A DNA stretch of 64,000 nt, taken from NCBI GenBank assembly GCA_963674735.2, contig CAXXQS010000002.1, positions 1,312,001 through 1,376,000 on the forward strand. The letters are read 5' to 3'. This stretch comes from Myxococcota bacterium. Lineage in GTDB: Bacteria > Myxococcota_A > SURF-8. Under the pieces are notes generated by a model. The model was given only the letters and a program-made list of their open reading frames with translations. It did not search any database and was not told the DNA's origin. Of the stretch, positions 20,605-21,079 are shown one piece after another (the stretch's first letter is position 1; each line of letters starts with the position of its first letter). The position numbers were made by a program, and so were the translations under genes.

Positions 20605-21052
20605 GACATAAAAGTATCGCGGCCTTCTCTGCGACTTTTGGGGAAGGGAAGGGTCAAGAATTGACGCGCATCACTCTTAGATGGGGAAACAAGGAGAATA
20701 AACCCATTCTCCCTCGGGGGTATTCTTGAAGAAATATTGATCCGCAGAGAAGGCCGTGGAAATCACTTAGCTTCAAAGAACGTGGCTAACCAGTATCTGA
20801 CGTTTTCGCGAATGATGACGGTGACAAGTTCAAGAAGCGGTTGCATGATGTCATCCTCAATGAAAGGAAAAAGGGAGGAGACCGGATAGGGCAACCTGGA
20901 AATAGAACATGAACCTCAGCGCACGACCAACTTTAACTTCAACACCACAGCGAGCCGCAATTAGTTCCGGTCTCCTCGAACCTTGATTTCGTCTTTCCTT
21001 GCCGTAGCAAGGTGAGATAGCCATTTTCTCAAAGAACTCACATCCGAATGGC
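20605..21052 (-). ncRNA. Candidate sigma54-dependent structured RNA (~450 nt) containing a small ORF
   Basis: Predicted +1 (21052) is the first base of a GCCAUU/AAUGGC stem; cUACGg hairpin; perfect 12-bp and 14-bp long-range stems; U-rich 3' end near 20605. Confidence 0.55.
20763..20846 (-). CDS. Small 27-aa peptide MQPLLELVTVIIRENVRYWLATFFEAK
   Basis: GAGGA RBS 7 nt before ATG; TGA stop; sits between two structured domains; below the ORF-track cutoff. Confidence 0.5.
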   Translation of the reverse strand: MQPLLELVTVIIRENVRYWLATFFEAK

Positions 21053-21062
21053 AGTTAATAGT

Positions 21063-21079
21063 AGCAATCAGTGTGCCAA
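21063..21079 (-). promoter_or_regulatory. Sigma54 (-24/-12) promoter
   Basis: Minus strand TTGGCACACTGATTGCT = TGGCAC-N5-TTGCW, GG-N10-GC spacing exact; IHF-like site 21117-21129 upstream. Confidence 0.8.

Follow-up and report, generated by a model that had tools for sequence, protein, structure and literature searches.

A 64,000-nucleotide (nt) stretch of a Myxococcota genome (contig CAXXQS010000002.1, positions 1,312,001 to 1,376,000; hereafter the window, in the genome G000) carries on its minus strand a small predicted transcription unit built around an open reading frame (ORF) of only 27 codons. Read from its promoter, the unit comprises a sigma54-type promoter, a leader, a first RNA domain closed by two complementary arms (domain 1), a ribosome-binding site, the micro-ORF, a second stem-closed RNA domain (domain 2), and a U-rich tail (Table 1). 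The same order of elements is present in all four genomes known to carry the unit, which belong to four genera, and the predicted RNA is about 445 nt long in G000 and 477-584 nt long in the three relatives (G001, G003, and G004). The predicted unit is conserved, lineage-restricted, of sigma54 type, and stand-alone, and it could not be assigned to any described family of RNAs or proteins. At the least it would be a structured small messenger RNA (mRNA) that encodes a new micro-protein and has a single RNA module on each of its 5' and 3' sides, and it is possibly a dual-function RNA.

Table 1. Features of the unit and of its surroundings in the 64-kilobase (kb) window of G000, in the order in which the promoter would read them. 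UAS, upstream activating sequence.
Feature	Position	Strand	Basis or remark
Palindrome AGTGTTGC-N9-GCAACACT, candidate UAS, about 690 nt upstream of the -12 element	21735-21759	minus	putative function
Second palindrome copy, AGTGTTGC-N7-GCAACACT	21621-21645	minus	also called terminator-like by the plus-strand scan
Sigma54-type promoter TGGCACACTGATTGCT (TGGCAC-N5-TTGCT; GG at -24, GC at -12)	21063-21078	minus	sequence reading, perfect consensus
Leader, predicted +1 to domain 1	20978-21052	minus	5' hairpin, motif GUUCUUUGA (21037-21029), hairpin CCUUGC-UACG-GCAAGG (21012-20997)
Domain 1, 5' arm GAGGAGACCGGA (20977-20966) paired with 3' arm UCCGGUCUCCUC (20886-20875)	20875-20977	minus	perfect 12-bp stem
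Ribosome-binding site GAGGA	20854-20858	minus	7 nt before the ATG at 20846
Micro-ORF, 27 codons plus stop (84 nt), MQPLLELVTVIIRENVRYWLATFFEAK	20763-20846	minus	homologues, coding substitution pattern
Domain 2, 15-bp closing stem (20756-20742 with 20634-20620)	20620-20756	minus	14 bp perfect plus one G.U pair
Tail CGAUACUUUUAUG	20607-20619	minus	end of conserved block, presumed 3' end; putative termination
Outer-membrane beta-barrel gene (PF13505), signal peptide, long Pro/Glu/Ala/Thr-rich linker	19580-20488	minus	family match

The original prediction, drawn from the letters of the window, had proposed a self-contained unit in which two stem-closed RNA domains flank a micro-ORF, and its recurrence in three other genera bears this out. 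The promoter, the stem that begins at G21052, the UACG hairpin, the 12-bp stem, the GAGGA site, the 27-codon ORF, and the U run had all been located correctly. The 14-bp stem described for domain 2 is present and can be lengthened by its G.U pair, and the AT-rich DNA said to extend for about 700 bp upstream (21000-21700) has a G+C content of 33-40%, against 55-65% in the flanking genes. The prediction had recognized no known RNA family, and a search of the whole window against Rfam 15 at the gathering threshold agrees with it in returning 0 matches. In permissive mode, the four loci together gave 4 Rfam matches of 20-25 bits (gathering thresholds, 34-102 bits), none of them within the unit and none common between loci. 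Nothing resembling the unit turned up among the titles and abstract openings returned by literature searches.

The unit has so far been found in a single, little-known Myxococcota family, in which three of the five genomes other than G000 are carriers; the two non-carriers, both of genus g3, have a completeness of 79% and 86%. A six-frame search with the peptide in 300 genomes of the phylum gave convincing matches only in G001, G003, and G004, and these span exactly the 27-codon ORF. A match in G007 (E = 0.008, L005) was dropped because the promoter, the stems, and the ORF context are absent there, and 18 weaker matches (E > 0.08) were dropped because they lie inside long ORFs. A peptide profile matched only the four carriers among the 10 species-level genomes that represent the class, and a covariance model of domain 2 found the four carrier loci only, in single copy each, among 150 genomes of the phylum. 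When 1.84 billion protein representatives were searched with a profile, 4 matches were returned: the G001 and G004 proteins, a new 29-residue homologue (P0003, the fifth) encoded on a single 15.9-kb metagenome contig, and an unrelated, repetitive 214-residue protein (P0004), which was dropped. A search for homologous proteins with a 43-residue form of the peptide gave zero candidates, and a DNA-level search of 60 relatives gave a single 42-nt match at chance level (E = 0.002). No RNA run was found to contain the stretch. One public DNA run from another study, X4, yielded a 262-nt contig over 20737-20993 that is about 92% identical to the window, with 21 differences and two 2-nt deletions; the contigs from X1 and X3 are identical to the window and add no independent information.

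Exact-pattern scans returned 13 stretches, 8 from species-representative genomes and 5 from Joint Genome Institute (JGI) metagenome contigs, and the unit is present only in L021 and L025, which are G001 and G004. The remaining 11 stretches are unrelated to the unit and consist of a repeat in Anaerolineales-titled contigs and one metagenome contig, coding sequence in Paraburkholderia-like contigs, and single chance matches. The first of these is a sequence of about 158 nt found on three contigs of an Anaerolineales-titled metagenome-assembled genome (L018, L020, and L022) and on metagenome contig L027, identical except for three bases in L022. It looks like a dispersed repeat picked up by chance through the domain 2 pattern and unrelated to the unit.

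In all four carriers, the promoter reads TGGCA[CT]-N5-TTGCT and stands at a matching distance from the conserved leader. Promoter spacing would place the +1 of the G000 unit at 21052, and transcription of the unit would probably depend on sigma54. The G000 genome has one rpoN gene, 21 strong sigma54-activator genes, and 13 perfect TGGCAC-N5-TTGCW sites (5.2 expected by base composition), the majority of which are near such genes. By coordinates, at least 8 of these 13 sites have a sigma54-activator gene no farther than about 4 kb away, a proximity that suggests auto-regulated or adjacent activator-target pairs. The small RNAs Pxr (Myxococcus), CrcZ (Pseudomonas), and GlmY share the promoter class of the unit, and Pxr also comes from the same phylum (Pxr is the subject, by title and abstract opening, of PMC5684412, PMC10217877, PMC5568312, and PMC11928866). 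In contrast to these RNAs, the unit is 445-584 nt long and coding, lacks the A-rich motifs that define CrcZ (0 in all four genomes), and has no Rfam match.

At the protein level, the micro-ORF is the best-conserved part of the unit. Its homologues in G001, G003, and G004 encode 27-30 residues, and both the ATG and a purine-rich site 7-11 nt upstream of it are present in four of four genomes. The four ORF sequences are 46-58% identical at the nucleotide level, and across all six pairs the differences (per 27 codons) number 12-16 at first positions, 3-7 at second positions, and 15-21 at third positions. The codon for Leu7 differs in every genome (CTT, CTG, TTG, and TTA), and Arg13 is written CGC, CGT, or AGG in three genomes and replaced by Lys (AAA) in the fourth. 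The X4 relative has seven changed codons, four silent and three conservative, and the three match residues of other members; the X4 data alone suit the antisense frame equally, but that frame has two stops in G004. This pattern indicates that the micro-ORF is a real protein-coding gene, its translation being predicted from sequence. The original prediction had viewed the unit as a dual-function or polycistronic precursor from which RNase III could free two small RNAs and a peptide mRNA. The ORF stands, and the simple precursor does not: the unit would be at least a small mRNA, because the micro-ORF is the part best conserved as protein.

The micro-protein is predicted to form one helix (residues 2-28; mean predicted local distance difference test score, 82). 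The longest run without a charged residue is seven in five of five homologues, and mean hydrophobicity is 0.12-0.26. The helix is weakly amphipathic, with hydrophobic moments that do not differ significantly from those of shuffled sequences (P = 0.07-0.19). Searches of Pfam and NCBIfam with the micro-protein gave no family match, and a search of the protein Atlas gave no usable match.

Both closing stems show compensatory changes among the relatives in which conservation was examined. In domain 2, all 15 pairs are kept in all four genomes (60 of 60 cells paired, none broken), and four pairs are altered in both partners, a count of double changes that none of 500 column shuffles matches; slid controls are 43-52% paired. 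In domain 1, 11 contiguous pairs are kept in four of four genomes, none is broken, and three have changes on both sides, including GA/AG exchanged together with UC/CU in the window. Over both stems there are four wobble cells, each of them G.U on the promoter-read strand and A.C on the opposite one. These observations argue that both RNA domains are real on the promoter-read strand.

Domain 2 is more stable than shuffled sequences in each of the four genomes (folding energy z = -3.7 to -7.8). Its interior is C-rich and G-poor and contains an inner hairpin (about 20713-20693 in G000) that is strong in every genome, at a similar place and with a different sequence. The conserved motif UGAUGCGCGUCAAUUCUU (20673-20656) includes a near-invariant, single-stranded-looking core, GAU[GA][CU]GCGUCAA, and there are 2-6 UCCC and 2-11 CCC motifs per ~100 nt. 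The U run of the tail (20613-20610) begins 6-7 nt past the closing stem; (U)UUUAUG is common to three of the four genomes, G004 has a U5 run instead, and conservation ends at this point.

Across the four genomes the leader measures 75, 77, 72, and 73 nt. Its 5' hairpin in G000 starts at G21052 and pairs GCCAUU (21052-21047) with AAUGGC (21025-21020), and a leader hairpin of differing sequence lies at about +35 to +65 in each genome. The conserved motif at +16 to +24 exactly duplicates nt 66-74 of the micro-ORF (20773-20781; codons F-F-E). In G003 the 9-mer GAUCUUUGA is identical in leader and ORF, in G001 a 7-mer is common to both, and in G004 there is none; compared with shuffled leaders, P is 0.02, 0.02, and 0.38 for G000, G003, and G001. 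No pairing partner for the leader motif was consistent across genomes. At about +10, an AUG is followed immediately by a stop codon in G000 (AUGUGA, 21038-21043) and G001 (AUGUAG) and not in G003 or G004.

The 5' arm of domain 1 is purine-rich (GAGGAG, GAGGAAG, or GGGAAG) and resembles a ribosome-binding site, and the 3' arm is its pyrimidine complement. Between them lies a loop of 79 nt in G000 and 79-197 nt across genomes, which is G/U-rich and A-poor and is not alignable between genera. The loop folds more weakly than shuffled sequences (z = +0.8 to +2.7) and contains 3-7 copies of GUUG versus about 1 expected (P = 0.0005-0.04), of which 3/3, 4/6, 4/5, and 6/7 fall in one phase in the four genomes. 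Pairing of the loop with the interior of domain 2 or with the micro-ORF is no better than in shuffled or non-cognate pairs (P = 0.19-0.95). The GUUG-repeat loop is the most unusual part of the unit and points to a binding partner. The G000 genome has CsrA, and Hfq was not found in it (the genome is 94% complete). A sponge of the CsrB/RsmZ or CrcZ type was considered and rejected, because the loop lacks GGA arrays (counts of 0, 2, 5, and 1) and A-rich arrays (AAnAAnAA, 0 in four of four genomes) and has GUUG repeated instead.

Folding models connect domain 1 to translation. When the 5' arm is blocked in partition-function calculations, the mean unpaired probability of the ribosome site plus start codon falls from 0.46-0.56 to 0.21-0.28 in all four genomes. 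In G000, G001, and G003 this value moves by no more than 0.07 when the 12-nt window that is blocked lies at a clear distance from the arm; G004 is the exception, with shifts of up to -0.19 for windows immediately upstream of the arm and of -0.13 for one 5' window. We infer from these models a possible three-part translational switch spread over 80-200 nt. The known three-part switches of riboswitch and thermosensor platforms are similar to the modeled arrangement, in that a pyrimidine arm pairs either with a purine arm or with the true ribosome site. The unit differs from them in that the partners are 80-200 nt apart around an unstructured repeat loop and there is no recognizable ligand-binding fold.

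The explanation we favor, at a probability of about 55%, is that the unit is a stand-alone sigma54-dependent small gene whose structured mRNA is gated by domain 1 and ended by domain 2. Sigma54 RNA polymerase, with an activator, would start near 21052 on the minus strand. The resulting RNA would yield a single-helix, non-membrane micro-protein of 27-30 residues from a coding part placed between two cis-acting modules. With the arms of domain 1 paired, the true ribosome site of the micro-ORF would be open; with the 5' arm occupied, the freed pyrimidine arm would fold onto that site and less translation would follow. The unstructured, GUUG-rich loop of 80-200 nt is the likely landing place for the trigger, which might be a protein, a 30S subunit, or a small RNA. 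Domain 2 and the U run would most likely set and protect the 3' end, as a stabilizer module.

Several points weigh against this explanation. The start, end, and strand of the transcript follow from sequence logic, and the comparison covers four full sequences and one 262-nt fragment, all from one family, so that the covariation counts are small and the sequences related. The switch is a product of folding models in which the modeled change is moderate. The full 453-nt RNA is not unusually stable (z = -1.8; -0.8 to -1.5 across the four genomes), and the antisense strand scores about the same, so the case for the RNA domains is one of covariation and not of energy. The stem of domain 2 encloses about 105 nt, which together with the distance to the U run means that it is not a canonical intrinsic terminator. 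A terminator of that kind at the U-tract of the original prediction is not supported; neither domain appears in a terminator scan, which takes loops of 3-8 nt only (with a tail starting 0-2 nt after the stem). No sigma54-activator gene was found within the window. The model leaves unexplained the leader's repeat of ORF nt 66-74, as well as a 3-nt periodicity of the loop in three of the four genomes (chi-square P <= 0.005); in the G000 loop the periodicity is not significant (P = 0.44). Also unexplained is why the loop is better conserved than the ORF in the X4 contig, whose listed differences from the window number 1 over the 79 nt of the loop and 9 over a 78-nt span of the ORF (Fisher P = 0.009; changes close to either end of the contig are unlisted, which limits the comparison). 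Because of this low divergence and the other retained loop features, the loop looks constrained at the nucleotide level.

An unlikely alternative, close to the original prediction, is that the RNA also acts in trans. A dual-function RNA would encode the micro-protein while it, or pieces processed from it, acted elsewhere: the C-rich, G-poor interior of domain 2, with its UCCC/CCC motifs and an invariant 16-nt motif, would pair with the ribosome sites of other mRNAs, and the GUUG loop would titrate an RNA-binding protein. The near-invariant single-stranded-looking motif and the UCCC/CCC motifs of domain 2 are consistent with such a role, as are a domain 1 loop that appears selected to be unstructured and GUUG-enriched, the unusual conservation of that loop in the X4 relative, and two domains more elaborate than a small mRNA needs. 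The apparent lack of Hfq in G000 also fits, since Firmicutes are known to have C-rich seeds that function independently of Hfq. However, a genome search for the complement of the 21-nt domain 2 motif found no site with fewer than four mismatches except its own locus, and the loop has no GGA or A-rich array like those of known protein sponges. The 11-15-bp stems are also short for RNase III, which needs about two helical turns, and the originally proposed RNase III release of two small RNAs is not supported.

The described dual-function RNAs RNAIII/hld of Staphylococcus, SgrS/SgrT, SR1/SR1P, and AzuCR/AzuC resemble the unit in that an ORF of 26-43 residues lies between structured domains in an RNA of a few hundred nt. 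RNAIII, of ~514 nt, has C-rich loops, domains closed by long-range helices, and a helical peptide of 26 residues. The unit differs from all of these RNAs in having no sequence or Rfam relation to them, a sigma54 promoter, a peptide that is only weakly amphipathic, and no trans target in the one search made. SR1 is introduced as a dual-function RNA in the title and abstract opening of PMC3526287. A full counterpart of RNAIII, in which a sigma54-gated bifunctional regulator of an uncultured Myxococcota class would combine, under one enhancer-dependent switch, a helical micro-protein, an unstructured 80-200-nt GUUG loop as sponge or landing pad for an RNA-binding protein, and a C-rich 3' domain that silences other mRNAs at the ribosome site, is a speculative and rather doubtful proposal.

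Domain 1 might instead be a translated leader that attenuates or couples expression. Ribosomes loading at the 5' arm would then read through the loop, and how far they advance would determine both whether the closing stem forms and whether the micro-ORF is reached. The ribosome-site-like 5' arm, the periodicity of the loop in three genomes, the common phase of the GUUG copies, and a U-rich stretch after the 3' arm in three of the four genomes would all suit this proposal. One frame is open across domain 1 in four of four genomes, ending 10 nt before the ATG in G000, overlapping it as AUGA in G001, and fused to the ORF in G004. An open frame is, however, expected from composition (P = 0.71, 0.72, 0.25, and 0.65; product 0.08), codon-usage scores favor no frame, and periodicity fails in G000. 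Neither a start codon at a workable distance nor a peptide is conserved, and because the reading frame of the conserved arms varies from genome to genome, selection acts on the nucleotides. A translated leader is accordingly improbable. A leader-peptide attenuator in the strict sense was rejected because it has no conserved start or frame and its hairpin would have an 80-200-nt loop. Domain 1 as a protein gene was also rejected: its open frame is expected by chance, codon scores are uninformative, and the candidate peptides of both strands have no Pfam or NCBIfam matches.

In the type I toxin-antitoxin loci hok/mok/sok and tisB, a tiny ORF lies in a long structured mRNA with long-range pairing; a second frame overlaps it from upstream, and an unstructured stretch ahead of it could act as a ribosome standby site. 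A locus of this kind (hok/mok/sok or tisB/istR), in which the micro-protein would be a toxin, its mRNA silenced by long-range structure and controlled by an antisense RNA, would share these features with the unit, where the upstream frame overlaps the start of the ORF or runs up to it. The promoter is of a type that is tightly off by default, and a weak sigma70-like match lies on the opposite strand at 20821-20849. This reading is very improbable, in that the homologues have no membrane-spanning stretch (their uncharged runs are too short), the locus is single-copy in each genome, its promoter is of sigma54 type, and the Pfam and NCBIfam searches gave no leads. Promoter matches number 3 in total against 2.9 in shuffled sequences, and beyond this weak, chance-level match there is no evident antisense RNA gene at the unit.

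A comparably slim chance attaches to the unit being a long regulatory 5' leader of the outer-membrane gene, with the micro-ORF as an upstream ORF. In G000 that gene is on the same strand, 130 nt past domain 2, and in G004 a homologue (39% identity, E = 4e-37) also follows the unit, at a gap of about 445 nt that is itself a point against an operon. Homologues are found in exactly the three other carrier genomes of the family, and neither the unit nor the gene was found in the two incomplete genus g3 genomes. The original prediction had assigned the gene a sigma70-like promoter of its own, but a consensus scan lists none between domain 2 and the gene, which would favor a common transcript. On the other hand, the homologue in G001 and G003 is remote from the unit, either on a separate contig or at a distance of 840 kb, and has neither a sigma54 site nor a comparable leader; different genes follow the unit in those two genomes. 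Conservation ends at the U run, and the genes next to the unit differ between genomes. Because the outer-membrane gene follows in only two of four genomes and occurs elsewhere without the unit in the other two, the unit is not tied to it, and this arrangement indicates that the unit is independent of the next gene.

It is hardly credible that the inverted repeats act at the DNA level, as protein-binding palindromes or as the relic of a mobile element: GTTG(C) does occur also in the upstream palindromes and beside the promoter, the arms are conserved in sequence and not in pairing alone, and folding scores have no strand preference, but the four wobble cells, G.U on the transcribed strand, would be mismatches on the opposite strand or in a palindrome of duplex DNA, the unit is single-copy and not a repeat family, and both the leader hairpin and the inner hairpins of domain 2 stay in position despite changes in sequence.

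If the small sigma54-dependent gene that we favor is expressed as predicted, it would represent a new micro-protein family together with one or two new structured RNA motifs. It would also provide a compact model of a long-range stem that gates translation from a distance of 80-200 nt, and a handle on sigma54-controlled behavior in non-model Myxococcota. Annotation routinely overlooks ORFs of fewer than 30 residues together with their RNAs; no protein-family search found the 84-nt ORF of the unit, and only three related clusters occur among the 1.84 billion protein representatives.

Upstream of the unit, TGTTGC/GCAACA half-sites number 6 per 1100 nt in G000, 7 in G004, 3 in G003, and 0 in G001. 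The palindromes themselves occur in G000 and G004, are reduced to half-sites in G003, and are absent from G001. In G000 both copies lie in the AT-rich DNA between the unit and a divergent GMC oxidoreductase gene (21990-23912, plus strand), and they could serve either the unit or that gene. On the other side of the unit, a region that is not conserved beside it in the other genomes (16374-19545, plus strand) contains two MacB/FtsX-type permease genes and an ATP-binding cassette (ABC) ATPase gene, convergent with the outer-membrane gene; the permease and ATPase genes could form an export system.

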